Below, one piece after another: positions 27,062-60,937 of a DNA stretch of 64,000 bases. The position numbers were made by a program, and so were the translations under genes. The DNA is taken from the NCBI RefSeq assembly GCF_045037415.1, contig NZ_CP173438.1; one strand, given 5' to 3'. The DNA comes from Escherichia coli. Its GTDB lineage: Bacteria; Pseudomonadota; Gammaproteobacteria; Enterobacterales; Enterobacteriaceae. The notes beneath the pieces are model-generated. The model saw only the letters and a list, made by a program, of their open reading frames with translations, had not been told where the DNA came from and ran no database searches. Numbering within the stretch: the stretch's first letter is position 1; each line of letters starts with the position of its first letter.

Positions 27062-27592
27062 TTACTGCACATCCTGCTCAAAAGGAATTATTGAAAAATC
27101 CTCAATGTCGCTTTTAATGGAAATACCGGGAATATTTTTCACGGCCTCTTTTTCATTCAGGATAGCGTCTTTATTTATTTCCTCTTTTACACGAATAAAG
27201 CGCTCAAGCCCCAGACGTCTCAGTAATTCAATAACATTATCCGCCCCACGGATACTGACTGATGGCGGACGGTTTCGCCACTGCACCTCGCCGGTGGTGA
27301 GGTTAGCGAACTTCACCTTCCCGTTGCCGGTCAGTTCATCACGGTGTGCCTCACACCATGTCTGAATACCGGACTGCAGTTCGGCCATGCGTTTTTTCAG
27401 GCTCTCGGTGAGCGGGGCATAACGTGCGGTGATATCGCCAATGGCGTCATTCATTTCTGTTTCAGCCCTGACCAGTTCACGTTGTGCGTCACCGAGTAGT
27501 CTGATTCCCTCAATGACCTCTTCACGTGTCCCCGGCACCCAGAGTGCTGCTGCGGCCTTGATACGTTTTGCACCTTTTGTACTTTTTGCCAT
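27062..27592 (-). CDS. gam: Host-nuclease inhibitor Gam (Mu Gam-like)
   Basis: 176 aa; strong similarity to recalled Mu Gam over its length (ETEMNDAI..., WCEA.RDELT..GKVK.ANL.TG.V.WR.RPPSVSIRG, DFSIIPFEQ). Confidence 0.75.
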   Translation of the reverse strand: MAKSTKGAKRIKAAAALWVPGTREEVIEGIRLLGDAQRELVRAETEMNDAIGDITARYAPLTESLKKRMAELQSGIQTWCEAHRDELTGNGKVKFANLTTGEVQWRNRPPSVSIRGADNVIELLRRLGLERFIRVKEEINKDAILNEKEAVKNIPGISIKSDIEDFSIIPFEQDVQ

Positions 27593-27619
27593 TTTTTATG
27601 ATTTCTCCAGTTGTGCTGA

Positions 27620-27889
27620 TTACCACAAAGATTCCGGCCACACGACGCGACAGCCGTGCAGTTCGAAAACGCCCTGACGGAAATATCCCCTGTGGTCATG
27701 TCCGGTATACAGATAACAGGCCTTTCCCTGCTCAAGCATGCGCATGCAATGCGCACTCCGGGAAACGCGGATGACAGGTTTGTTACCCCTGATGGTGATG
27801 CTTTGTACATCCGTGTTCGTCGCCTTAAGCGCCATAATGGCTGACTGCACTTTGCTGATTTGCTGGTTGATACCTGTGGTGGATTTCAT
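27620..27889 (-). CDS. Hypothetical early protein in the Kil position (89 aa)
   Basis: Between MuB-like gene and gam; Cys/His-rich; no confident family. Confidence 0.35.
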   Translation of the reverse strand: MKSTTGINQQISKVQSAIMALKATNTDVQSITIRGNKPVIRVSRSAHCMRMLEQGKACYLYTGHDHRGYFRQGVFELHGCRVVWPESLW

Positions 27890-27891
27890 TA

Positions 27892-29097
27892 TTAAACCCC
27901 TTTGACAACGTCAGCGTTGACCTGTGGAACCCCGATTTCAGCGGCCAGATTCATGGCGGCTATTACCAGGTTACTGACGGCCAGCGGATACAGCAGGCTG
28001 ACCATATTTTTACGGTGACTTCCCGGATTGCTCAGGCGGGCACGTATGGCATCCACTGCACCGGCGTCCATAATGTCCGTCAGCTGTTTACCGGCCCGTT
28101 GCAGTTTGAACGTCAGAAATTCTTCAAGGTTATTGTCCAGAGGCAGAAGTTCGACCACCTCACAGCGCTGAACGACTTCACGGACTTCCATATTGCGTTC
28201 AGACAGTTTTGTCGCCAGTTCCGGCTGGCCAATCAGCACGATGGACAGCAGTTTTTTGAAACCGGACTCCAGCTCAAAAAAGCGTTTGAGGTGTTTCAGT
28301 GTCGGAATGGGCAGACTGTGGGCCTCCTCAATCACCAGAACGTGGCTGAACCCCGCCTGGCTGCTGTCTTTCAGGACGCGATGCAACTGGCGAAAACGGG
28401 CGTCCTGACTGCGTCTGATGCTTTCCAGTGGTGCGATGGTACTGATAATGGCTTCGGCAATAGCTGCTGCCTTCAGGGTTTTCCCTTTCACATCGTTGTC
28501 TTCCATAGCGATGATGTATGGCTCGATAACAATTACCGGCGCATTCTCGCGGTTGATACGTTCAGTCAGGTCGCGGCGCAGCGTGGATTTACCCGCACCG
28601 GACTCACCGATGACGGCCATAAACCCACCATGACGGGCTGTCTGGTACAGCGCCTCACGCACGTAGCGAATGTCCGGGGTGGTGAACACATCATCAGAAC
28701 CCTGCATGGCTTCGTCGGCGAACGGGTCACGGAAAAGACCAAACGCTTTTTTGGTTGCTGGAAATAACACCTGTTTTTTGAGTAACATATTCTCTTCCTC
28801 ACTGAGGCTCGTTTTATCTGTGGTACCCGCTGTACGGGGCGTGGCCGCGCCCTGTACAGCATCAAAACTCTTCGTTGTATCAATCCCCTGACTTTCCAGC
28901 CAGGACGCAAGACGCCGGCGCACTTCTCCGGGGCTGGTGCGGGGCCACGCGTTATGATTCACAATCTGGGCCAGCGTGGCCTCAGAAACATCGACAGCTC
29001 TCGCCACCACCGCCTGTGGAATACGGGCCTCTTTCAGTTGCTGCTTCAGTACCAGCATGTTTCCCTCCTCAGTTGCCGTTAACAATGCTGATAACAC
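27892..29097 (-). CDS. Transposition ATPase (MuB-like, AAA+)
   Basis: 401 aa; N-terminal HTH-like region; Walker A VIGESGAGKST; Walker B-like VLVIEEAH; immediately downstream of transposase. Confidence 0.65.
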   Translation of the reverse strand: MLSALLTATEEGNMLVLKQQLKEARIPQAVVARAVDVSEATLAQIVNHNAWPRTSPGEVRRRLASWLESQGIDTTKSFDAVQGAATPRTAGTTDKTSLSEEENMLLKKQVLFPATKKAFGLFRDPFADEAMQGSDDVFTTPDIRYVREALYQTARHGGFMAVIGESGAGKSTLRRDLTERINRENAPVIVIEPYIIAMEDNDVKGKTLKAAAIAEAIISTIAPLESIRRSQDARFRQLHRVLKDSSQAGFSHVLVIEEAHSLPIPTLKHLKRFFELESGFKKLLSIVLIGQPELATKLSERNMEVREVVQRCEVVELLPLDNNLEEFLTFKLQRAGKQLTDIMDAGAVDAIRARLSNPGSHRKNMVSLLYPLAVSNLVIAAMNLAAEIGVPQVNADVVKGV

Positions 29098-30838
29098 TGC
29101 TGCGGGCCGGTGTGGTCAGCGTGGCCATGACTTCATCCAGTGCGGCTTCCGGTACGCCGTCCGGGTACTGTGCCGTTAACTGGCGGTAATGTTCCGGCGT
29201 CCAGGTAAGGCCGTCGGCGCTGAACTTATCGCGCAGGGCTTTCGCGGCCTCCACATGAGTCATGGGACGTTGTTCAGTGCGCGGCCCGCGTACGTCAGAG
29301 GCCTGACCACGCTTCGGCATATAGGCCGGAAGTGTGGTGTCGTCGATATGTTTATACGGGTCAAGCCGCCCGCCGAACGGCAGCGCCTTCGCCTTGCGTG
29401 CGGCGGCTGCATCTGCGGCGTTGTCTGTACCGGTAACCAGCGCTTCGGTTTCTTTTGCCGCCATCTGTGCCGGGGTTTCCGGCAGGGCTTTGTAACTTTC
29501 GCCAAATACCGCCGCGCCTTCAGCAAAGCCAAACTCGTTCTTTCTGACCTCTTCGACCAGGAAGAACGTCTCGTGGCCGTCCTCACCGGTCAGAACCACC
29601 TGTGCCACATCGCTGCGCCATGGGTTACGGGTAATCATCAGTTTTTCACCAACCAGTACGCCCGGTACCGTTGATACGTCAAATTCAGTGCCCCGGAACG
29701 AGACACGAAGTTTTGGCGTGACTTTGCGGAGTTCTGGTGCCGCCACAGCCAGTTCACGACATACCTCAACGGAAGGCGCTTTTTTCAGCTGCTCAGCAGT
29801 AATCTTCAGCCAGATATCCGTGCGGGTTTTACCGTGGCGGCTGTGAACAGCCGTGGCGTTAAAGTGGCTGCGCCATTTCGCGGCCAGCGCGTTGAGTTCT
29901 TCCAGACTGTGAACCGGCCGGAACTTCAGACCCGGCTCCAGCTTGCGTTCGATAATGTCACGCGCCTTTTCCACCTGTCCGGTGGCGCGGGCGTTATGCG
30001 GCTTGTGCGCTATCAGGTCGATGCCCAGTGAGCGGCACATGTTTTTCGTCATACCCGCGGTGTTTGCCGAGCCGGGGTCGAGATAGAGTATTTTCGGCAC
30101 GCCGTGCAGCACGTCTGCGCCGCCACGCTCCTGCATGGCGTTGATAAGCACAGAACACAGGTTCTCACCTGATTCCGCGCCCGTCACATACTCAACGTAA
30201 ATCCAGCCGCTGGCATGGTCGGTAATCTCGTAACTCCACACGCGGTCACTGGCGATACGGGCAAGGTTAGCGGGCTTGTTCTTGTAGAACTTCGCGCTGT
30301 CCATCACCTGCAGCCCTTTATGTCCATTGCTCAGGTAGTAAAGCGTGCAGAGTGAGGCGTCAATCTGCCAGACATGATTGGGATGCAGACTGGCCACTTC
30401 GGTATGTGGTGCAGGGGCATCCAGTTGTTCCGGGTGCAGGCCATAGTTACGCAGAGCACGGCTGATGGCATCTTCAGACAACGGGAAAAACTCACTGGTG
30501 GTTTCATCTGTTCTGCCTGCGGTGATAAAGCCGTTAGCCCGCAGGGTTTCCACTGCATCTGCGATGGAATAGAGACGCTTACCGTTCTTGCGGGTGGCCT
30601 CACGCAGTGTGGCAGATATCAGCGCGGCTTCGTCGCGGGTCAGGGCGCTGCGCCCGGCATCGGCGCGTTTTTTGCGTTTATCAGTCACAGATACCTCCTT
30701 CAGCCTGCGCAGCAGAGTGGCGCGGGACATGCCAAGTTCAGCACAGGCAGCGTCGTATATTGCACCGCGTTTACCATGCCCCGCGTCACGTGCCGCGCGG
30801 GCTGTTTCAACCAGTTTTTCAGTCAGTGCCGGGGTCAT
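29069..30838 (-). CDS. DDE transposase (Mu A-like, rve/integrase core)
   Basis: 589 aa; N-terminal HTH; catalytic core HVWQIDASL...YLDPGSANTAG...ATGQVE consistent with D,D,E triad. Confidence 0.8.
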   Translation of the reverse strand: MTPALTEKLVETARAARDAGHGKRGAIYDAACAELGMSRATLLRRLKEVSVTDKRKKRADAGRSALTRDEAALISATLREATRKNGKRLYSIADAVETLRANGFITAGRTDETTSEFFPLSEDAISRALRNYGLHPEQLDAPAPHTEVASLHPNHVWQIDASLCTLYYLSNGHKGLQVMDSAKFYKNKPANLARIASDRVWSYEITDHASGWIYVEYVTGAESGENLCSVLINAMQERGGADVLHGVPKILYLDPGSANTAGMTKNMCRSLGIDLIAHKPHNARATGQVEKARDIIERKLEPGLKFRPVHSLEELNALAAKWRSHFNATAVHSRHGKTRTDIWLKITAEQLKKAPSVEVCRELAVAAPELRKVTPKLRVSFRGTEFDVSTVPGVLVGEKLMITRNPWRSDVAQVVLTGEDGHETFFLVEEVRKNEFGFAEGAAVFGESYKALPETPAQMAAKETEALVTGTDNAADAAAARKAKALPFGGRLDPYKHIDDTTLPAYMPKRGQASDVRGPRTEQRPMTHVEAAKALRDKFSADGLTWTPEHYRQLTAQYPDGVPEAALDEVMATLTTPARSSVISIVNGN

Positions 30839-30853
30839 AGCTTGTCTTCCCTG

Positions 30854-31171
30854 TTATCCGATTCTGGCGGCAATTTTTCTGGCGAGGTCGCACAGTGTTT
30901 CGCCATCGCAGGTTTTCACCACGGTATTTACCGGTTGCGGTGCAACTACCGGGCGTAATGCTGACTGATTCTGCAGACGTCTTATCTGCTGCATCAGCAT
31001 CACCTCCATCGTCAGTACAAACGGGTGCGTCTCCTGTGCGGGTACGCAGATTTCACCGGAAGGGGTCACCACGCGGAAACCCTGCACCATCTCCGGCAGC
31101 AGATTACACAGTGCGTGCCCCAGTGCCTCCGGGCTGTCCATCAGGGTATTTTGTGTGTTATTCGTATTCAT
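30854..31171 (-). CDS. Hypothetical protein (105 aa)
   Basis: Operon-coupled between transposase and the 306-aa ORF; no motif recognised. Confidence 0.35.
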   Translation of the reverse strand: MNTNNTQNTLMDSPEALGHALCNLLPEMVQGFRVVTPSGEICVPAQETHPFVLTMEVMLMQQIRRLQNQSALRPVVAPQPVNTVVKTCDGETLCDLARKIAARIG

Positions 31172-32091
31172 TACTGCATATCCTCCGGTCGGTTGATTTC
31201 AGGTTCCGGTTCGGTCAGCCAGGCGGGGGCATCGTTACCCGATGGAGCGGCCTCAAGGTCAAACGTCTCACGTAATGCATGAACACTGCGTTCAATCTGG
31301 CAGACCAGACCGGCCATGAAATCTCTGGGGGTATCGATCATGTTTTTGGTGCAGTATTCACACAGGGTCTCAAAAACACTGGACAGCCGGACGGCGATAG
31401 CCGATTCGGCCTCAACCGCTAATGCCGTCACTTCCGCCCGCAATTTTTTCAGTTCTTCGTCTGGCGGCGGAGGTTGCAGGCGCGATTTCTTCTCCAGTTT
31501 TGTGGCCAGTTCGTTGATTTTTTCGTCCTTTCCGGCAAGCACCTGTTGCTGAGCTGCGTTGGTTTCGCGCGCTTCACGCAGGGCGGCCTTCAGTTCGCGG
31601 CTGGTCATGCGATCAATATCATCAAGCGTTGCACCGGCGACGGTTCCACCATCAGCTAATGCGTCGAGTTCTTCGTCATCCAGAACCATCAGTTCATATA
31701 ACTTGGTTTTTCCCAAAACGCTCAGCGCTGAGCGTTTTGGCTGTTCATCTCCATTGCCGAGAAATTTCACGCTGGCCTGCATCATGCGACGAGCTACCTG
31801 TGGTGCTAATCCGAGGTCGTTTTCCAGAATATTTGTGAAATCACCATGCGGTTCATTTTCTTTTAAGATGATCAGCCGCTTACCCGCTTCCAACATAGAT
31901 TCAGCACTCTGCGCCATATAAAAACGTGCTTCGTGAACGATGCGTTCACGTTCATAAGGCAGTCCATCACCAAACTGCTGCATGATCTCCATGCGATGCT
32001 GTGTCATGGCATTCAGGCTGACGTTGAGATCATCCGACAGCGGTACATCGGCGTTCAGTTCAGTGTTAATCGGTGATTTGGTACGTCCCAT
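31171..32091 (-). CDS. Hypothetical coiled-coil protein (306 aa)
   Basis: Long predicted coiled-coil in the central region; located between ner and transposase, a position empty in Mu. Confidence 0.4.
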   Translation of the reverse strand: MGRTKSPINTELNADVPLSDDLNVSLNAMTQHRMEIMQQFGDGLPYERERIVHEARFYMAQSAESMLEAGKRLIILKENEPHGDFTNILENDLGLAPQVARRMMQASVKFLGNGDEQPKRSALSVLGKTKLYELMVLDDEELDALADGGTVAGATLDDIDRMTSRELKAALREARETNAAQQQVLAGKDEKINELATKLEKKSRLQPPPPDEELKKLRAEVTALAVEAESAIAVRLSSVFETLCEYCTKNMIDTPRDFMAGLVCQIERSVHALRETFDLEAAPSGNDAPAWLTEPEPEINRPEDMQ

Positions 32092-32101
32092 TGATTACTC
32101 C

Positions 32102-32416
32102 TTACAAACGACTACCTGAAATGACACGTTGGTTAATTTCGTTAATACGATCCTGTGCACGTGCCATCTCGTTACTGTGGGCCATGGCGATCTGCAGTAA
32201 CTGGATGCCCGGTGCAAAACGTCCGTTCTCCAGTTTCAGAGCCAGCCCTTCTTCAATGAGGGTGTTGAGTGCCCGGTTGATGTTTGCCGGTGACTCGTGC
32301 AGTGCTGTCGCCAGTTCACCGTTAGAAATACCGTTCAGGGCATGACCGCGCAGCGCTTTGAGTACCCGGAGGATGCGACTGCCGGAGCTTGAAACATTCG
32401 TCTTACTCATCTGCAT
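32102..32416 (-). CDS. Putative winged-helix DNA-binding protein (104 aa)
   Basis: Segment RILRVLKALRGHALNGISNGELATALHESPANINRALNTLIEEGLA resembles an IclR/MarR-type wHTH. Confidence 0.4.
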   Translation of the reverse strand: MQMSKTNVSSSGSRILRVLKALRGHALNGISNGELATALHESPANINRALNTLIEEGLALKLENGRFAPGIQLLQIAMAHSNEMARAQDRINEINQRVISGSRL

Positions 32417-32462
32417 ACCTCTTTTGCGATATGTGATAACCTTTTACAAAGACTCAAAATAT

Positions 32463-32651
32463 TTAGGCCGCCTGAGCTGTTGATTTCAGTCCCAACTTCA
32501 CGGCGATTTCATGGGATTTACCGTAACGGGCTTTGGTCTGCCCGTTGAGAACGCGGTATACCTCATTGCGGTTGTAGCCGTTTTCTTCTGCCCAGCGGGT
32601 GAAAGTGATCCCGCGCTGGCGGAAGAGAGCTTTGACTTGTTCTGCAGTCAT
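32463..32651 (-). CDS. ner: Ner-like DNA-binding regulator
   Basis: 62 aa; first gene of the leftward early operon, divergent from repressor; Ner/Nlp-like HTH by recall. Confidence 0.6.
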   Translation of the reverse strand: MTAEQVKALFRQRGITFTRWAEENGYNRNEVYRVLNGQTKARYGKSHEIAVKLGLKSTAQAA

Positions 32652-32703
32652 CGTTGTCTCCTTTGTTGATGCAATGATGTTTGCCTTATATGTGTTAGAT
32701 TAT

Positions 32704-32721
32704 TGCTCATAATTATGAGCA
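32704..32721. promoter_or_regulatory. Candidate operator: perfect 18-bp palindrome TGCTCATAATTATGAGCA in the ner/repressor divergent intergenic region
   Basis: Read directly; centred in the 93-bp gap between divergent ner and repressor starts; half-site ATGAGCA recurs at 32745. Confidence 0.5.
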
Positions 32722-32744
32722 TATCAAGATAGAGATTCACTTTT

Positions 32745-33101
32745 ATGAGCAAAGATATAGGAGAGCGCGTTATTTCTGTGAGGAAGAAAGCAGGGTTGAA
32801 CCAGAGAGAATTTGCAGCTCGTTTAGGTATTTCTAATGGTGGTATCAGTCAGATTGAAAATGGAAAGGCGATGCCTGGAGGGGAGTTTCTGTTAAAGATG
32901 CATCAAGAGTTTAATGTTGATGTAAATTGGTTGCTCACTGGAATGAGCACAGATGGTATGACTAGAAACCAGAATCAAATTTCCCCAGAAAAACAAAAAC
33001 TAATAGATACTTTTGACGACATGACACCAGACCAACAACGCTCATTTCTTGAGATTGGGCGATTCTATACTCAGCCAAAACCAGGAAAAATCGCAGGCTG
33101 A
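32745..33101 (+). CDS. Prophage repressor (XRE-family HTH)
   Basis: 118 aa; N-terminal HTH LNQREFAARLGISNGGISQIENGKAMP; divergent from ner. Confidence 0.65.
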   Translation: MSKDIGERVISVRKKAGLNQREFAARLGISNGGISQIENGKAMPGGEFLLKMHQEFNVDVNWLLTGMSTDGMTRNQNQISPEKQKLIDTFDDMTPDQQRSFLEIGRFYTQPKPGKIAG

Positions 33102-33186
33102 TACTGACCCGGACACAAAGGACAGGTGGTTGATCTGGATGCTTTCAGAAAACATCGCCAGTGACATAGTGGAAGTTGTTTGGTTT

Positions 33187-33218
33187 ACCGGAAAGCATTG
33201 TGCTTTCCGGTTTTGTTT
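33187..33218 (+). terminator. Rho-independent terminator after repressor gene
   Basis: Hairpin accggaaagca-ttg-tgctttccggt followed by ttttgttt. Confidence 0.5.
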
Positions 33219-33982
33219 CAGAAGTTGCAGATTAGCAGTTCACGGCGCGGCGTGGGTTTACCCGCCAGACTGTAGTTGATATTCACTGTCTGTATGTTCA
33301 GTCCAGTGAACACCTCGCGCATCTGCGGGATGTCGTTCACCGAAATTATCATTTTTCCTCTGATGCACCGGGCCAGCTCTGCCAGCCGCGAGTAGTTCCC
33401 TTCAGGAAAATCCACACCATAGCCTTCCGTACCCAGGTACGGTGGGTCGCAGTAGAACAGCGTGTGCGGACGATCATAACGCTCAATGCACTGTTGCCAG
33501 TCCATGTGTTCTATGACTGTTCTGGAAAGCCGCAGGTGTGCCGCTGACAGTTCTTCTTCAATACGTAGCAGGTTGAAGCGTGGCGGGGATGTGGTGGAGG
33601 TACCGAAGCTGTGCTCTGCCACCTTGCCGCCAAACGCCTGCTTCTGAAGGTAGTAGAACCGTGCCGCACGCTGGATATCCGTCAGTGTTTCTTCCGGGGT
33701 GATCTGCAGCCATTTGTAGATCTGACGGCTGACCAGCGCCCATTTGAACTGGCGGACAAATTCTTCCAGGTGATGCTTTACCACCCGGTACAGATTCACC
33801 AGTTCACCGTTGATATCATTGATGACTTCGATCTTGCCGGGTGTCTTAAGAAAATAGAGCGCTGCTGCCCCACAAAACGGCTCCACATAACATTCATGCG
33901 CCGGAAACAGCGGCAGAATGTGTTTTGCAAGGCGGCGTTTGCCACCAATCCACGGCACGATGGGTAATGTCTGCATTTTCAT
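33218..33982 (-). CDS. Dam-like N6-adenine DNA methyltransferase (D12 class)
   Basis: ORF 33218..34072; likely start MKMQTLPIVPWIGGKRRL at 33982; SAM-binding FCGAAA and catalytic DPPY motifs. Confidence 0.7.
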   Translation of the reverse strand: MKMQTLPIVPWIGGKRRLAKHILPLFPAHECYVEPFCGAAALYFLKTPGKIEVINDINGELVNLYRVVKHHLEEFVRQFKWALVSRQIYKWLQITPEETLTDIQRAARFYYLQKQAFGGKVAEHSFGTSTTSPPRFNLLRIEEELSAAHLRLSRTVIEHMDWQQCIERYDRPHTLFYCDPPYLGTEGYGVDFPEGNYSRLAELARCIRGKMIISVNDIPQMREVFTGLNIQTVNINYSLAGKPTPRRELLICNF

Positions 33983-34172
33983 AATCTGCAAGCCTTTTAC
34001 AATTATTAAAAAATATGGCAGTCTGGTCAGGTCTCGCGAGACTGACTGAACCTTGGTCGGCTCACAGCGCATTCCTGTGGGGCGATGACCAGCCCGGCTT
34101 TCGGGTGCCGGGCTGGTCGTTCTTTCATGATGCGGCAGGGATGGCGGGATTTCTGTTAATGTGGTTTAGGGA

Positions 34173-34388
34173 TTATCCGGGGCGATTTTCTGACCTTATC
34201 CGGTCCAGGGCATAAGTAATACCTTCTGCAAAAACAGAAGTATCAAACTGCTTTTGTATTCCCTGAAAATGAAAAGCGGCACGACAGACACTCAGTTCTC
34301 CGCGGTATAACCGGATAATATCTTCCAGAACATTGTTCACTGCTTCAGCACGGCGCTGATGTTCTGTTAACGTTAATCGGGGATTCAT
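34173..34388 (-). CDS. Hypothetical small protein (71 aa) in cargo module
   Basis: ORF only; its start overlaps the start of the divergent 134-aa ORF, so one of the two may be spurious. Confidence 0.25.
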   Translation of the reverse strand: MNPRLTLTEHQRRAEAVNNVLEDIIRLYRGELSVCRAAFHFQGIQKQFDTSVFAEGITYALDRIRSENRPG

Positions 34389-34791
34389 GATGCACTCCTT
34401 AAATGATGATTTTTATGTACTCACCGGCAAAATATTCTGCCGATTACTGAACACGCATCCGGCACCTCAGGTTTTGATTTATTCTGGTTTTTTCGATATC
34501 CCGGACCAGGTTGATCACGACCAGAAAAAGTGCCGGTGTTTTATTGATACGCTGATATGGCTTCGGGATAACAGCTATATTCGTTACTCTCAGTTGCTGG
34601 CTGTGGGAGCGGCTGATGTCGTCCTCACGGAAAAAACGCTCTGTCTGCTCAATGCCATGCCGACCTTTCTGCAGCCCCGGCCCGTACCATTTAAAGAGTC
34701 ACTTCTGGATGCAGTAAAAACCGGTGAAAATGCAGTCATCGCTGAATGCGTATCCCGGATTATGCGTTACGTGTTTAATGAACGTAAGTGA
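34387..34791 (+). CDS. Hypothetical protein (134 aa) in cargo module
   Basis: ORF only; convergent 25-nt overlap with the P-loop gene; no motif recognised. Confidence 0.3.
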   Translation: MMHSLNDDFYVLTGKIFCRLLNTHPAPQVLIYSGFFDIPDQVDHDQKKCRCFIDTLIWLRDNSYIRYSQLLAVGAADVVLTEKTLCLLNAMPTFLQPRPVPFKESLLDAVKTGENAVIAECVSRIMRYVFNERK

Positions 34792-35495
34792 GGTTTATCC
34801 GCTGTCTGCATAATCCCGATAGCCAGTGCGAGGGGAAGTAATTCCGGGGAAACTCTTTCAAACAGCGATGCCCATTCTCCTCTCGCCATCACTCTGTCCA
34901 GCCCGCCCTCCAGTTGCATTTCAGCAATCTTCCTGATTTCCCGGAACAACGCCGCTTTGATCTCTTCATGCTCAGCTTTATTTTCCGGTGTCAGAAGGTA
35001 TTCGTCGAAGAACCGGGGAGGCTGGTTAATCGGGATGTGTTCCTGTTTGCCGTACTTCGGGGACGAACAACATTCTGTTGACTGACCAGTGAGTTTACGT
35101 AACTCCTTCATGAGCAGCTCCTGATCGTAAACTGTCATCAGTGCCGCAATGGTGGCATGCAGTGCATCGGGCAGTATCCAGGGTTGCCGGCCCGTGGGGC
35201 ATATAACATCCAGCAGCTCATTCGTCCGACAGATACGCTCCTCGCCGTATGACAACAGGCCCTGTCCCGTGTATTCCTCCAGCCTGATCACTGTGCCAGC
35301 CCGTGGTTTCTGCCATGTGCTCAGATCATCCCCACTCATACGGCGCTCACCGTCCACGTCTGCGGCGTCGACAATGACGCTGTTTCCGAATTCCTGTTTC
35401 ACCACTTCCTCTATTCGCGCCAGTACGTAACTTTTACCGCTGCCCACAGGACCGGACACGGTGACAGTGATGACCGGATTCAGTGTCTGCGTCAT
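34767..35495 (-). CDS. P-loop NTPase-like protein of unknown function (242 aa)
   Basis: Walker A VTVSGPVGSGKSY at N-terminus; remainder unrecognised. Confidence 0.45.
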   Translation of the reverse strand: MTQTLNPVITVTVSGPVGSGKSYVLARIEEVVKQEFGNSVIVDAADVDGERRMSGDDLSTWQKPRAGTVIRLEEYTGQGLLSYGEERICRTNELLDVICPTGRQPWILPDALHATIAALMTVYDQELLMKELRKLTGQSTECCSSPKYGKQEHIPINQPPRFFDEYLLTPENKAEHEEIKAALFREIRKIAEMQLEGGLDRVMARGEWASLFERVSPELLPLALAIGIMQTADKPHLRSLNT

Positions 35496-35625
35496 ATCGT
35501 ATTCTCCTCTGTGAATAATTCATCGTTTATCCTGCACATCCCGTATCCCCGGCTCTCTTAACGCGCTTTAAAATCCTTCGCGCCCTGTATTTGTGATGCT
35601 GTCTCCACCAGATAAGGAGACACAC

Positions 35626-35976
35626 ATGAAAAACCTGAAAAAATTCATTCCCCCTGTTAAAAAACCTCGCCTCAGCGGCTGGCTGCTGACCTCAGTGCTG
35701 TTGCTGGGCACCATCGCTCTGGTCTCACCACAGCAGCTGCCTGTTGTGATCTACAAGCTGGCACTCATCACGCTGGCAGCAGTGCTGGGTTACTGGCTTG
35801 ACCGTTCGCTCTTCCCCAAAGCCCGTCCCGGTCAGTACCTGAAACATGACGACAGGCTGATGGCTGAAGGGCGTTTCCCGGTACAGACCGGCCTTCACCT
35901 GGTGTTTTCTGCTGCGTTAATCCGCCGTGCACTGATTGTTGCAGCGGTCTGCCTGGCTGTTGCGATGGGGCTTTAA
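35626..35976 (+). CDS. Putative holin / small membrane protein
   Basis: ORF 35593..35976; ATG at 35626 preceded by SD aaggaga; about 3 predicted TM segments; first gene of lysis cassette. Confidence 0.4.
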   Translation: MKNLKKFIPPVKKPRLSGWLLTSVLLLGTIALVSPQQLPVVIYKLALITLAAVLGYWLDRSLFPKARPGQYLKHDDRLMAEGRFPVQTGLHLVFSAALIRRALIVAAVCLAVAMGL

Positions 35977-56783: not shown

Positions 56784-57354
56784 GCCATTACAACTCCCGC
56801 CACCGCTTGAGGGTGATATCAGTCTCAGGACGCTGGGAAGACTGGCAGGACGGCTGGATAACATCGACCTGAGCGTACTGATGGTCTTTCTCGTCGATAT
56901 CGTCGACAGTTCCGCGCTGCCATGGCTGGGCGAGCAGTTCTCACTGTCTGGCGATGGCTGGGAGCTGGCGGAATCGGACGATGTTCGCCGCATGCTTATA
57001 AAAGCAGCCATCGAACTGCACCGGTATAAAGGGACGCCGTGGTCAATCCGGGAAGTTATCCGCCGTTTTGGCTTTGGTGAAGTGGATCTGATTGAAGGCA
57101 CAGGTCGTCTCAGTTACGACGGCAATCGCAGCTATAACGGACTGTTTGTTCATGGAGATGCAGCCGCCTGGGCAGTTTATCGCGTTATTCTGAAACAGCC
57201 CATTACTAACGATCAGGCCGCGATGCTGCGTCAGACGCTGGCTGCATTTGCACCGGCCCGCTGCCATCTGGCCAGCCTGGAGTATCAGTCTGTGGCCATT
57301 CGCTATAACAATACCGCCATCCATGATGGCAGTTATAACCACGGGAGCAGTTGA
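56776..57354 (+). CDS. Baseplate/tail protein (gpI-like)
   Basis: 192 aa; overlaps J-like stop and fibre start. Confidence 0.5.
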   Translation: MTEPLQLPPPLEGDISLRTLGRLAGRLDNIDLSVLMVFLVDIVDSSALPWLGEQFSLSGDGWELAESDDVRRMLIKAAIELHRYKGTPWSIREVIRRFGFGEVDLIEGTGRLSYDGNRSYNGLFVHGDAAAWAVYRVILKQPITNDQAAMLRQTLAAFAPARCHLASLEYQSVAIRYNNTAIHDGSYNHGSS

Positions 57355-58688
57355 TTATGGGAAACCTGAATGAAACAGAAAAGTGGGAAGAAAATATCTA
57401 TCAACTGGAGACATCAGATCCGGTTCTGGGTGGTGCAGACGGGATATCAAATCGAGCCCCCCGGCAACTGGCAAACAGGACGAAATGGCTGAAGAAGAAA
57501 ACGGAGGAAGCCGCACAGTCACTGGCTGAACACGTACGTTCCCGTAACCACCCGGACGCGACACTGACAGCTAAGGGGTTCACCCAACTGAGCAGTGCCA
57601 CCAACAGCACCTCTGAAACGCTGGCCGCCACACCAAAAGCGGTCAAGGCTGCATACGACCTGGCAGCCGGCAAGGCGCCTGCCAGCCACACTCACCCGTG
57701 GAGTCAGATAACGGGAGTGCCTGCGGCTTCACTGACGGCAAAAGGCACCGTACAACTGAGCAGCGCCACGGACAGTCAATCAGAAACTGAGGCTGCCACG
57801 CCGAAGGCGGTCAAGGCTGCATACGACCTTGCAGCCGGCAAGGCGCCCGTCAGCCACACTCACCCGTGGAGTCAGATAACGGGAGTGCCTGCTGCCTCGC
57901 TGACGGCAAAAGGCACCGTACAATTGAGCAGTGCCATCAACAGCACGTCTGAAATACTGGCCGCCACACCGAAAGCGGTCAAGGCTGCATACGATCTGGC
58001 AAACGGAAAACAACCGGCAGATGCCACGCTCACTGCTCTGGCAGGACTTGCCACTGCAGCAGATCGGTTGCCTTATTTTACCGGAGCAGACCGCGCAGAG
58101 CTGGCAACCCTTACAGCTATTGGTCGCGCTATTATCGCTAAGGGCAGTATAAAAGATGTCCTCAATTACCTTGGTTTAGGAGAAGGCTCGGCGCTACCCG
58201 TTGGTGTGCCTGTTCCGTGGCCCACCGCCACACCGCCAGCAGGCTGGTTAAAGTGCGACGGGCGCGCCTTTACAAAAGAACAATATCCTGTTCTGGCCAG
58301 AGTCTACCCGACCCTCCGTCTTCCCGATTTACGCGGTGAGTTTATCCGTGGATGGGACGACGGGCGCAAAGTTGATACAGGACGTAAGTTGCTGTCCGCA
58401 CAAGGGGCAACGCTGTTAAGAACAGCAATGCTGGATTATTATAACCAGGACACTACGGGAACCTCGGGGATAGTCGGCATGGGATTCAACAATGAAGATT
58501 CCATTACAGACCTTCGTGAGGGCAGCTTTAAAATGCCGGACGGGACAACATTCAGCGATCCTGTCGTGGCAATGTCAGACAATGGTATGCAGGCTACTAT
58601 TCTGACCTCTATCAGAAGCGGGTATGCGAAGGGTATCACTGTCAGACCCCGTAGCATTGCACTTAATTACATTGTGAGGGCAGTTTAA
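57351..58688 (+). CDS. Tail fibre protein (constant N-terminal part fused to variable C-terminal cassette 1)
   Basis: 445 aa; three tandem fibre repeats (TAKG.QLSSAT.S.SE..AATPKAVKAAYDLA.GK); C-terminal part homologous to the two inverted cassettes. Confidence 0.8.
   Translation: MIMGNLNETEKWEENIYQLETSDPVLGGADGISNRAPRQLANRTKWLKKKTEEAAQSLAEHVRSRNHPDATLTAKGFTQLSSATNSTSETLAATPKAVKAAYDLAAGKAPASHTHPWSQITGVPAASLTAKGTVQLSSATDSQSETEAATPKAVKAAYDLAAGKAPVSHTHPWSQITGVPAASLTAKGTVQLSSAINSTSEILAATPKAVKAAYDLANGKQPADATLTALAGLATAADRLPYFTGADRAELATLTAIGRAIIAKGSIKDVLNYLGLGEGSALPVGVPVPWPTATPPAGWLKCDGRAFTKEQYPVLARVYPTLRLPDLRGEFIRGWDDGRKVDTGRKLLSAQGATLLRTAMLDYYNQDTTGTSGIVGMGFNNEDSITDLREGSFKMPDGTTFSDPVVAMSDNGMQATILTSIRSGYAKGITVRPRSIALNYIVRAV
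57561..58005 (+). repeat. Three tandem copies of about 50-aa tail-fibre repeat
   Basis: Protein-level repeat seen directly in the translation. Confidence 0.7.
58160..58185. other. Candidate invertase crossover site 1 (gix/hix-like)
   Basis: TCCTCAATTACC-TT-GGTTTAGGAGAA; right half-site complement TTCTCCTAAACC resembles Gin/Hin half-site TTCCTGTAAACC; at constant/variable junction of fibre gene. Confidence 0.55.
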
Positions 58689-59302
58689 TGAGTAACACTG
58701 CAGTTCTGGATGAAAACGGTATCGCCACTGTAGCGGGCGATATCACTGTATATCACTATGACGAGGAAACCCGGGAATACACCTCATCCTCTGTGGAGTA
58801 TCTCGCCCTTGGGGTGGGTACTCCGGCACATTCGTGCGCCGATGCACCGCCGGAAGCAATTTCGGGTTACGTGGTTTGCCGGACTGCCACGCTGAACGGG
58901 TGGGAGCATGTGCCTGATCACCGCGGCGAGACGGTATACAGCACGGAGAACGGTAACCCCGTTCTGATTACCCAACCGGGTGATTACCCGGCGGACACCA
59001 CCACAAAACAGCCAGCCACGCCATGGGATACCTGGAACGGTGAGGCGTGGGTAACCGATACTGAACGGCAGCGAGCCGCAGAACTGGAGGTTGCCAGACA
59101 GCAACGCCAGCAACGGGTGAAACAGGCGATGGCGTCCGTCGATCTTATCAACCTCAAACTGCGTGCTGGTCGCAGTCTGAAACCAGAAGAAACGGCAAAA
59201 CTGAACGCCGTGCTGGATTATATCGACGAGCTGAACGCACTGGATATCAGCAAGGCACCTGAAATCAGCTGGCCGGAAGCGCCACTGGCGCTTGCCGGCT
59301 GA
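58688..59302 (+). CDS. Tail fibre assembly protein (putative)
   Basis: 204 aa; ATGA-coupled to fibre stop. Confidence 0.5.
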   Translation: MSNTAVLDENGIATVAGDITVYHYDEETREYTSSSVEYLALGVGTPAHSCADAPPEAISGYVVCRTATLNGWEHVPDHRGETVYSTENGNPVLITQPGDYPADTTTKQPATPWDTWNGEAWVTDTERQRAAELEVARQQRQQRVKQAMASVDLINLKLRAGRSLKPEETAKLNAVLDYIDELNALDISKAPEISWPEAPLALAG

Positions 59303-59308
59303 ACGGTA

Positions 59309-59770
59309 TCACGCCGCCCTCACGATATAGTTAAATGCGATATTGCGGGGGCGAGCTGATACATAAGCCCACCAGTCATATCTTTGTGCACCTTTAGAGG
59401 ATGCATCAAATATCCACTTTTTGCCATTTAAGACCCCCAGTTGATTAGAGGTTAAAGCGTCACCAAATCCGTATTGTGTAGAGCCGAGCGAACTGATATC
59501 TCCGGTATCATTATCATCAAAACCGGATACGATAGTCCCTTCCTGAAATGAAAGTAGCGCACGCCCGGTATCAACCTTGCGACCACCGTCCCATCCACGG
59601 ATAAACTCACCGCGCAAATCGGGAAGACGGAGGGTCGGGTAGACTCTGACCAGAACAGGATATTGTTCTTTGGTGAACGTAGCTCCGTTGCACTGTAACC
59701 AGCCTGCTGGCGGTGTGGCGGTGGGCCATGGAACCGGTACACCAACAGGCAATGCAGAGCCTTCCCCCAA
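59309..59770 (-). CDS. Alternative tail-fibre C-terminal cassette 2 (inverted, promoterless)
   Basis: 153 aa; begins GEGSALPVGVPVPWPTATPPAGWL..., ends RPRNIAFNYIVRAA, both matching the resident fibre C-terminus; starts at crossover site 2. Confidence 0.6.
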   Translation of the reverse strand: MGEGSALPVGVPVPWPTATPPAGWLQCNGATFTKEQYPVLVRVYPTLRLPDLRGEFIRGWDGGRKVDTGRALLSFQEGTIVSGFDDNDTGDISSLGSTQYGFGDALTSNQLGVLNGKKWIFDASSKGAQRYDWWAYVSARPRNIAFNYIVRAA

Positions 59771-59787
59771 ACCAACGTTTCTATGCC
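59762..59787. other. Candidate invertase crossover site 2 (inverted relative to site 1)
   Basis: TTCCCCCAAACC-AA-CGTTTCTATGCC. Confidence 0.5.
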
Positions 59788-60209
59788 GCCCTTACGATGT
59801 AATTAAACGCAATGTTACGGGGACGAATGGTCACATAATTAACCCCATCGCCTCGCGAAGGACCTGCAAATGAAAAACGGGAGAATCCAGGTTGGTTGTC
59901 AACGATTTGGTCATAGTTATTGATTGAATGACCAGACCCAATGTCAAAATTACCTGCGTAATGAGAAAAACTTGTACCATCCTGCCGTGAAAGCAGATCG
60001 CGCCCTGTATCCACTTTTCGCCCGTCGTCCCATCCACGGATAAACTCACCGCGTAAATCGGGAAGACGGAGGGTCGGGTAGACTCTGGCCAGAACAGGAT
60101 ATTGTTCTTTTGTAAAGGCGCGCCCGTCGCACTTTAACCAGCCTGCTGGCGGTGTGGCAGTGGGCCACGGAACAGGTACACCAACGGGCAGCGCCGAGCC
60201 TTCCCCCAA
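59781..60209 (-). CDS. Alternative tail-fibre C-terminal cassette 3 (inverted, promoterless)
   Basis: 142 aa; first 70 residues nearly identical to the resident variable part; ends RPRNIAFNYIVRAA. Confidence 0.6.
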   Translation of the reverse strand: MGEGSALPVGVPVPWPTATPPAGWLKCDGRAFTKEQYPVLARVYPTLRLPDLRGEFIRGWDDGRKVDTGRDLLSRQDGTSFSHYAGNFDIGSGHSINNYDQIVDNQPGFSRFSFAGPSRGDGVNYVTIRPRNIAFNYIVRAA

Positions 60210-60227
60210 ACCAACGTTTATCTCTCA
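60202..60227. other. Candidate invertase crossover site 3 (same orientation as site 2)
   Basis: TTCCCCCAAACC-AA-CGTTTATCTCTC; immediately upstream of invertase gene. Confidence 0.5.
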
Positions 60228-60280
60228 AATCCTCCCCACATTATCTCAGTACTTTAACCACTCAAAAGGGAGTATTTTTA

Positions 60281-60853
60281 ATGCTGATTGGCTACATACG
60301 TGTGTCAACAAATGACCAAAACACAGATTTGCAACGCAATGCATTAATGTGCGCAGGATGTGAACAGATTTTTGAGGACAAAATGAGCGGAACCAAGTCG
60401 GAACGACCAGGCCTGAAACGCGCTTTAAAGTGCCTTAAAAGAGGGGATACATTGGTGGTCTGGAAGCTGGATCGGTTGGGTAGAAGAATGAAACACCTCA
60501 TTGCTCTCACAGAAGAGCTACGCGCAAAAGGTGTCAATTTTCGCAGTCTGACGGATTCAATCGATACCAGCACTCCGATGGGAAGGTTCTTTTTTCATAT
60601 GATGGGTGCACTGGCAGAAATGGAGCGTGAACTGATAGTTGAGCGCACGCTGGCTGGACTGGCTGCTGCGCGAGCACAAGGAAGAGTTGGAGGACGTCGC
60701 CCGAAACTGACGAAGGAGCAGCATGAGCAGATCGCAAGATTGCTCCAGAAAGGGTATGACAGAAAGCGGCTGGCAATTATCTATGATATTGGACTGTCAA
60801 CGATCTACCGCTATCACCCTGTTGGGACTGTCATAACGCAACCTGAAATGTAA
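60281..60853 (+). CDS. Serine-recombinase DNA invertase (Gin/Hin/Pin/Cin family)
   Basis: Within ORF 60152..60853; ATG at 60281 after SD aaaggga; N-terminal MLIGYIRVSTNDQNTDLQ with catalytic Ser; C-terminal HTH. Confidence 0.85.
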   Translation: MLIGYIRVSTNDQNTDLQRNALMCAGCEQIFEDKMSGTKSERPGLKRALKCLKRGDTLVVWKLDRLGRRMKHLIALTEELRAKGVNFRSLTDSIDTSTPMGRFFFHMMGALAEMERELIVERTLAGLAAARAQGRVGGRRPKLTKEQHEQIARLLQKGYDRKRLAIIYDIGLSTIYRYHPVGTVITQPEM

Positions 60854-60910
60854 TTCTTTTTCAAATAATGAAACGCCGCGTGGATGCCATTTATCGCACA
60901 AGATAGAGTG

Positions 60911-60931
60911 CATTTATCGCGCGGCGCATCA
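60911..60931 (-). repeat. Prophage right terminal inverted repeat (reverse complement TGATGCGCCGCGCGATAAATG)
   Basis: Ends in CA at 60931; a second GCGATAAATG-like motif at 60888..60897. Confidence 0.6.
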
Positions 60932-60937
60932 TTCTTC
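60932..60937. repeat. Right copy of target-site direct repeat (ttcttc), overlapping displaced ycaL start codon
   Basis: 60932..60939 reads ttcttcat; on minus strand this is ATG AAG AA, i.e. ycaL codons 1-3. Confidence 0.6.

Follow-up and report, generated by a model that had tools for sequence, protein, structure and literature searches.

Conserved winged-helix and DUF3102 genes upstream of the transposase gene in the early operon of a BcepMu-type Escherichia coli prophage

We analyzed three open reading frames (ORFs) at positions 30854-32416 of a 64,000-nucleotide stretch of Escherichia coli DNA (assembly GCF_045037415.1, contig NZ_CP173438.1; hereafter the window), which lie on the minus strand between a small ner-like gene and the transposase gene of a transposable prophage. 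The prophage, 37,045 bp long and spanning 23887-60931, is a BcepMu-type transposable phage and not a Mu derivative, since its ner-like gene falls in the BcepMu gp16 family, its transposase matches Pfam rve only, and its winged-helix and DUF3102 genes appear, on comparison of sequences, to be an ancestral pair. We consider it likely that the block forms the early (pE) operon usual in such prophages, and not, as the first-pass annotation of the window had proposed, a Mu operon into which three genes were inserted. The arrangement itself is already known: the sequence is identical to that of the deposited Escherichia phage PhiKM and of hundreds of E. coli prophages, and BcepMu/B3-type phages show this gene order as a textbook feature. 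Since the feature is already present in public records, its novelty is low and the finding as such matters little. What remains of interest is that, throughout a supergroup of transposable phages, genes for a basic winged-helix protein and for an acidic DUF3102 protein stay strictly syntenic with the transposase gene.

The early operon and its relatives

The early region of the prophage, read from the divergent repressor gene toward the transposition genes, is composed as follows:

32745-33101, plus strand, XRE/cI-type repressor, divergent from the early operon (phrog_8 at 1e-21, phrog_4 at 6e-17)
32727-32699, minus strand, candidate early (pE-like) promoter, TTGATA-17-AATAAT, a consensus match only
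32463-32651, minus strand, ner-like small helix-turn-helix (HTH) protein of 62 aa, BcepMu gp16 family (TIGR04111; phrog_925 at 4e-33)
32102-32416, minus strand, winged-helix protein, 104-aa ORF, homologue of BcepMu gp12 and B3 ORF14
31171-32091, minus strand, DUF3102 protein, 306 aa, homologue of BcepMu gp10, B3 ORF13 and phiE255 gp41
30854-31171, minus strand, 105-aa protein (phrog_5446 at 1e-73)
29069-30838, minus strand, DDE (rve) transposase A, 589 aa, BcepMu/B3 type (phrog_310 at 4e-147)
27892-29058, minus strand, transposition ATPase B (AAA_22/ExeA-like), 388 aa, start as annotated in PhiKM (phrog_296 at 5.5e-93)

The order of a winged-helix gene of about 100 codons, a DUF3102 gene of about 300 codons, a transposase gene and an AAA_22 ATPase gene was found in 11 other elements that we examined, namely nine named phages (BcepMu, phiE255, B3, PM105, phiSHP3, Bise, Mae-JY22, KP12 and PhiKM) and two metagenomic relatives. 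In BcepMu from Burkholderia the four genes are gp12, gp10, gp09 and gp08, in phiE255 they are gp42-39, and in Pseudomonas phage B3 they are ORF14-11; the same succession occurs in PM105, in the Klebsiella-derived KP12, in phiSHP3 of Stenotrophomonas, in Mae-JY22 of Microcystis and in Bise of Pseudomonas, and it is kept in the two metagenomic homologues at 33-34% identity. Moreover, the gaps between the DUF3102 gene and A, which measure 3-50 nt, persist at 33% identity, and KS10 carries a ner-like gene followed by a DUF3102-like gene and the transposase gene (PMC2628397). Taken from these comparisons, the placement of winged-helix and DUF3102 genes directly upstream of the transposase gene is the ancestral core layout of the BcepMu/B3-type supergroup. 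Hence the proposed three-gene insertion fails for the winged-helix and DUF3102 genes, and it stands for the 105-aa gene, a clean indel of about 330 bp limited to E. coli and Salmonella.

The closest parallels to the operon are found in BcepMu and phiE255 (gp45-gp39 in the latter), which share with it a gp16-family HTH protein and a winged-helix "transcriptional regulator" of about 100 aa. Identity amounts to 33-34% for this regulator, 42-56% for the DUF3102 protein, 67-68% for the rve transposase (67% to BcepMu gp09) and 61-62% for the AAA_22 ATPase (61% to BcepMu gp08); homologues of ATPase B likewise bear AAA_22. Unlike in these Burkholderia phages, the 105-aa gene parts DUF3102 from the transposase gene in the window, whose ner-like (71%) and winged-helix (56%) proteins are nearer to those of B3. 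BcepMu has extras of its own, a 70-aa gp11 between gp12 and gp10 and gp13-15 upstream. The pE operon of B3 (Beetrevirus) runs from the ner-like ORF17 through ORF14 and ORF13 to ORF12 (A) and ORF11 (B), with the same winged-helix, DUF3102, A and B order; B3 places ORF16 and the CII-like ORF15 between ner and the winged-helix gene and is devoid of the 105-aa gene.

The resemblance to Mu lies in the general plan, in which transposase and ATPase genes come after a divergent repressor/ner-type switch and lead on to Gam, GemA and a Mor/C-type activator; the latter three follow A and B in the same operon according to the PhiKM annotation. That Mu ner stands directly before the transposase gene, as the first-pass annotation said, agrees with general knowledge of that phage, and we know of no gene between ner and A in Mu. 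Unlike Mu, the transposase of the window has Pfam rve as its sole significant domain match, and its alignment to phrog_310 covers profile positions 130-687 of 696. Unlike Mu as well, the 62-aa protein passes the BcepMu gp16 model of NCBIfam (TIGR04111, 97.4 bits against a cut-off of 34) and reaches the Ner family of Pfam (HTH_35) with an E-value of 4.9e-3 over residues 2-39 only; judged by these profiles, the gene is "ner" by position and not clearly by family. The divergent repressor resembles an RstR/DicA-like NCBIfam model with a score under the cut-off.

The genes of the operon appear to be expressed together. Reading of the sequence revealed Shine-Dalgarno motifs ahead of each early-operon gene, with AAAGAGGT directly ahead of the winged-helix start, TAAGGAGTAATCAATG as the junction of the winged-helix and DUF3102 genes, and GGAGGATATGCAGTAATG as the junction of the DUF3102 and 105-aa genes, where stop and start overlap by 1 nt in TAATG. 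The transposase ATG follows the 105-aa gene after 15 nt, and the remaining intergenic gaps are 10-46 nt; the operon coupling described in the first-pass annotation is thus borne out. The candidate promoter just upstream of the ner-like gene, which has 10 of 12 sigma-70-like matches and is the top site in the region, agrees in position with pE of the B3-like phage Fc02, whose pE operon is switched on in the first 10 min after induction; apart from A, B, gemA and mor, most genes of that operon carry no assigned function in the RNA-seq paper on Fc02 (PMC9936078). An Rfam search of 27500-35800 returned no RNA families.

Properties of the three proteins

All three ORFs are genuine genes and not chance ORFs, as judged from full-length PHROG matches, low ratios of nonsynonymous to synonymous differences (pN/pS) and detection by proteomics of proteins from a related prophage. 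Their coordinates, sizes (104, 306 and 105 aa) and minus-strand orientation are as the first-pass annotation gave them, with a likely shift in the start of the first ORF only. The proteomic data come from an extended-spectrum beta-lactamase-producing E. coli, in which Gam, a DUF3102 protein and the HTH protein encoded next to it were detected (PMC9927464), apparently all from a related prophage.

The winged-helix protein probably starts at the second ATG, at 32410, which gives 102 aa, because PhiKM is annotated in this way and most homologues (267 homologous clusters) have 101-102 aa. It matches phrog_1368 over its full length at 5e-45, and the DNA-binding fold noted in the first-pass annotation is recovered by Pfam HTH_IclR (PF09339, 1.4e-5, residues 14-59) and HTH_24 (1.2e-4), with similar scores for MarR. 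IclR-family regulators are proteins of about 250 aa with a C-terminal effector-binding domain, and no match to that domain was found by Pfam in the 102-104 aa of this protein. Hence we rejected membership of the IclR family, the name used in databases, on grounds of length and the missing effector domain; the protein is, by its domain content, a stand-alone winged helix, and the "IclR family" label is a misnomer. It is basic (isoelectric point, pI, 10.7; 9.8-10.7 across all 10 phages compared) and has the lowest pN/pS of the three-gene block, 0.05 against a diverged E. coli prophage. Searches against PDB sequences gave nothing significant, and PADLOC returned generic winged-helix matches only, of which the strongest (1.7e-5) fell in the HTH portion of a CARF model. 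The role of an extra regulator suggested by the first-pass annotation is plausible for this protein. We also considered it as a stand-in for the enhancer-binding domain I-alpha of MuA, given that the phrog_310 alignment of the transposase begins at profile position 130, but we do not claim this.

The DUF3102 protein matches phrog_1748 over its full length at 1e-143, Pfam DUF3102 (PF11300) at an E-value of 1.5e-5 over residues 65-173, and BcepMu gp10 by tblastn at 3e-38. Its family comprises at least 1585 representative clusters (217 with E ≤ 1e-30), and the Pfam domain is matched by 67 of 109 aligned homologues at E ≤ 0.001. The AlphaFold model built on the 109-sequence alignment (mean predicted local distance difference test score, pLDDT, 90) is all-helical, with an N-terminal globular domain at about 48-161, a long helical hairpin and a tail that is acidic and disordered; its long helices, at 164-205, 210-249 and 256-276, agree with the coiled coil of the first-pass annotation. 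Acidity extends over the whole protein (pI 4.7, net charge -19; globular domain pI 4.7, net charge -8), as it does in its counterparts in all 10 phages (pI 4.7-5.3), and its pN/pS against the diverged E. coli prophage is 0.13. A near-invariant E-x3-H-G motif (E78, H82, G83; "ENEPHG", query residues 78-83) occupies the loop that links helices one and two of the globular domain, and G70 and L134 are also invariant in the alignment. The motif looks like a functional site on grounds of its conservation and matches nothing known. No significant match was found among PDB sequences, the family-profile search gave coiled-coil noise alone, and a comparison of the model with solved structures yielded no convincing relatives. 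A full-text literature search retrieved no functional work on DUF3102, its mentions, in three papers, being incidental; for BcepMu gp10, B3-like phages and phiSHP3 it retrieved genome descriptions only.

Outside transposable phages, the DUF3102 gene directly follows a replication-initiator/primase gene on Lactobacillales plasmids and lies in the early region of enterobacterial phage-plasmids. These contexts point to a role with the replication module of the element and not with transposition chemistry as such. Three DUF3102 proteins with an N-terminal extension of 240-260 aa (Cys-rich in two of the three) come from loci in which, in all three cases, a recognisable winged-helix gene is absent upstream; these forms hint at a DNA-targeting part and DUF3102 acting together. 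In the metagenomic proteins P0201, P0205 and P0248 the extension, of about 240 aa, holds repeated Cys/His clusters (C-x2-C ... C/H), and the two loci inspected for such forms, L010 and L023, have no separate winged-helix gene. From this pattern, it may be a zinc-binding DNA-targeting module; a PHROG search with the extension of P0201 gave no match.

The 105-aa protein has 11 homologous clusters among 5.8 billion, all from E. coli or Salmonella where the source organism is named, and its gene is absent from every compared phage that shares the winged-helix, DUF3102, A and B genes, PhiKM excepted. When the window is aligned with KP12 and with the E. coli prophages of 2014C-3075 and SK1402, the indel begins right after the stop codon of DUF3102 and reaches to the start codon of the transposase gene; a 55%-identical version of 87 aa fills the same slot in a further E. 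coli prophage. With a pN/pS of 0.18 against the diverged E. coli prophage, the gene is under purifying selection and hence a real, maintained accessory gene, and its distribution marks it as a later addition limited to an E. coli/Salmonella sub-lineage. Pfam, NCBIfam, PADLOC and PDB sequences gave no matches for the protein, and its AlphaFold model (pLDDT 61, 7-sequence alignment) is too poor for a fold search. The anti-host function that the first-pass annotation offered for the block is reasonable, as a candidate, for this gene alone among the three. It is a tractable accessory candidate, in a prophage found in about 7% of complete E. coli genomes.

What the winged-helix and DUF3102 proteins may do

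We postulate, tentatively, a mechanism in which a DNA-binding winged-helix protein and a helical adaptor assist A and B. Upon derepression, the genes would be co-transcribed from pE and their translation coupled; the basic winged-helix protein would bind DNA, and the acidic, helical DUF3102 protein would serve the replication machinery, here A and B, as a protein-binding adaptor or oligomer, with the winged-helix protein probably recruiting it to DNA. As for the 105-aa protein, it would be a dispensable, moron-like early accessory. A wider version, in which the DNA-targeting winged helix and the DUF3102 adaptor form a dedicated transposition-replication component of all BcepMu/B3-type phages, the adaptor linking transposase and ATPase to DNA or to host replication/remodelling factors and DUF3102 being generally an accessory of replication modules, we regard as unlikely. 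If the two proteins were indeed accessories of transposition or replication, in vitro systems composed of nothing but A and B would lack components. The first-pass annotation had allowed that the genes might prove to be universally conserved transposition accessories with known roles; within this phage group, conservation beside the transposition genes holds for two of them, and known roles do not.

The adaptor mechanism draws on co-divergence, measured as the Spearman correlation of pairwise identities among 10 phages. The coefficients were 0.90 for A with B, 0.71 for DUF3102 with B, 0.63 for DUF3102 with A and 0.33 for DUF3102 with the ner-like protein, and 0.54 for the ner-like with the winged-helix protein and 0.30 for the winged-helix protein with A. 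Bise and the Burkholderia phages share 65-71% identity in the winged-helix protein but 32-35% in DUF3102 and A, and the operon of the window is itself mosaic, with ner and the winged-helix gene nearest to B3, and A and B nearest to BcepMu/phiE255. Compared with the prophage of E. coli SA53-3, the proportion of synonymous differences is 0.12 for the 105-aa gene, 0.18 for the winged-helix gene, 0.65 for DUF3102 and 0.81 for the ner-like gene; such jumps between adjacent genes indicate that recombination has broken up the operon at the borders of its genes. The assignment best supported by these sequence comparisons places the winged-helix gene in the regulatory module, since its exchange goes along with that of the ner-like gene, and DUF3102 in the transposition-replication module.

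Several points weigh against the adaptor mechanism. It was built from gene context, and the correlation between the winged-helix and DUF3102 proteins themselves is low (rho 0.14), which argues against a specific co-evolving interface; moreover, the 10 correlated genomes are related, so that their pairs are non-independent. The complementarity of N-terminal extensions and winged-helix genes comes down to three short metagenomic contigs and KS10, and one extended form, P0152 (362 aa), keeps a winged-helix gene upstream. The presence of DUF3102 on plasmids and phage-plasmids shows that the domain is not transposition-specific, and its weak resemblance to ParB-family HTH domains leaves room for DNA binding by DUF3102 itself.

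A purely transcriptional role of both proteins, as a CII-like or anti-repressor pair in a lysis-lysogeny or early-to-middle switch, with no part in transposition and with the adjacency to A and B as mere operon order, is in our opinion unlikely, though several observations favour it: the clearly DNA-binding fold of the winged-helix protein and its exchange along with the ner-like gene, the AlphaFold Database relatives of DUF3102, some of which are fused to a cro/C1-type HTH or named "phage transcriptional regulator", and the phage-plasmids in which a Mor-family activator gene stands two genes downstream of a DUF3102 gene. The divergence of DUF3102, however, follows A and B and neither the ner-like nor the winged-helix protein, its adjacency to A is held at low identity, and its neighbour on Lactobacillales plasmids is a replication-initiator/primase gene. 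It is rather improbable that DUF3102 is itself a ParB/KorB/SopB-like protein, that is, a coiled-coil dimer that binds phage DNA at the ends or at an internal site and bridges it for transpososome assembly. The globular domain does show weak resemblances in fold to the DNA-binding domains of SopB, KorB and Spo0J, the latter two listed by Foldseek (KorB with a template-modelling score of 0.52 on target), residues 84-111 resemble a helix-turn-helix in both model and sequence, and KorB is also acidic, so that a low pI is compatible with DNA binding. Against this, the acidic globular domain aside, none of the 109 family members has a ParBc, HTH_ParB or KorB match in Pfam, the family profile gives no match to Spo0J of Bacillus subtilis, the ParB protein used in this test (hhalign probability 0.8%), and, unlike the ParB family, DUF3102 proteins have no N-terminal CTPase domain.

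We find it very improbable that the whole block is inserted cargo for anti-host functions or superinfection exclusion. Early-operon genes of B3-like phages can confer exclusion, as the Fc02 study reports for gene 10 (PMC9936078), the 105-aa gene is a truly lineage-specific addition, and DUF3102 is acidic like DNA-mimic anti-restriction proteins; however, its net charge is moderate and atypical for a DNA mimic, the winged-helix and DUF3102 genes are core genes across the phage group, and PADLOC gave no significant defence-related matches for the block, with DUF3102 scoring 6e-3 to LmuB. We retain as the preferred reading the ordinary early operon of a BcepMu-type prophage.

Boundaries of the prophage and other genes

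The ends of the prophage were located by reading the junctions, a k-mer search for terminal inverted repeats being uninformative. The first two letters of the element are TG, from 23887, and the last two are CA, up to 60931; on either side lies the 6-bp direct repeat TTCTTC (23881-23886 and 60932-60937), a target-site duplication as read from a single copy of the prophage. The motif (A/C)GATAAATG is repeated inside both ends, at 23900 and, on the other strand, at 60888 and 60911; these repeats are probably transposase-binding sites. PhiKM (Bcepmuvirus), isolated from uropathogenic E. coli, is 100% identical to window positions 27800-33200. A survey of 5426 complete E. coli genomes recovered the 2-kb region in 634, with coverage of 80% or more in 408 and identity of 99% or more in 389.

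The PhiKM record (PQ738613.1) is labelled "partial genome" and looks circularly permuted. It fuses sequence matching window position ~58303 to that matching 23887, and thus is without the invertible segment and the invertase (58304-60931); a coding sequence annotated over this junction as "Fe2+ ABC transporter permease" looks like an assembly or annotation artefact. In the window, the right part of the prophage (57351-60853) holds an invertible tail-fibre region similar to the G segment of Mu, and a methyltransferase gene is placed between the repressor and the lysis cassette. The features of these two regions are as follows:

57351-58688, plus strand, tail-fibre gene, invertible region
58688-59302, plus strand, tail-fibre assembly chaperone, invertible region
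59309-59770 and 59781-60209, opposite strand to the fibre gene, two promoterless alternative fibre C-terminal cassettes
58171-58303 and 60082-60214, 133-bp inverted repeat
60152-60853, Gin/Cin-type DNA invertase (phrog_125 at 1e-95)
33218-34072, minus strand, Dam-like N6-adenine DNA methyltransferase, "DNA adenine methylase" in PhiKM (phrog_56 at 9e-101)
34767-35495, conserved 242-aa protein adjoining the methyltransferase gene (phrog_3787 at 5e-170)

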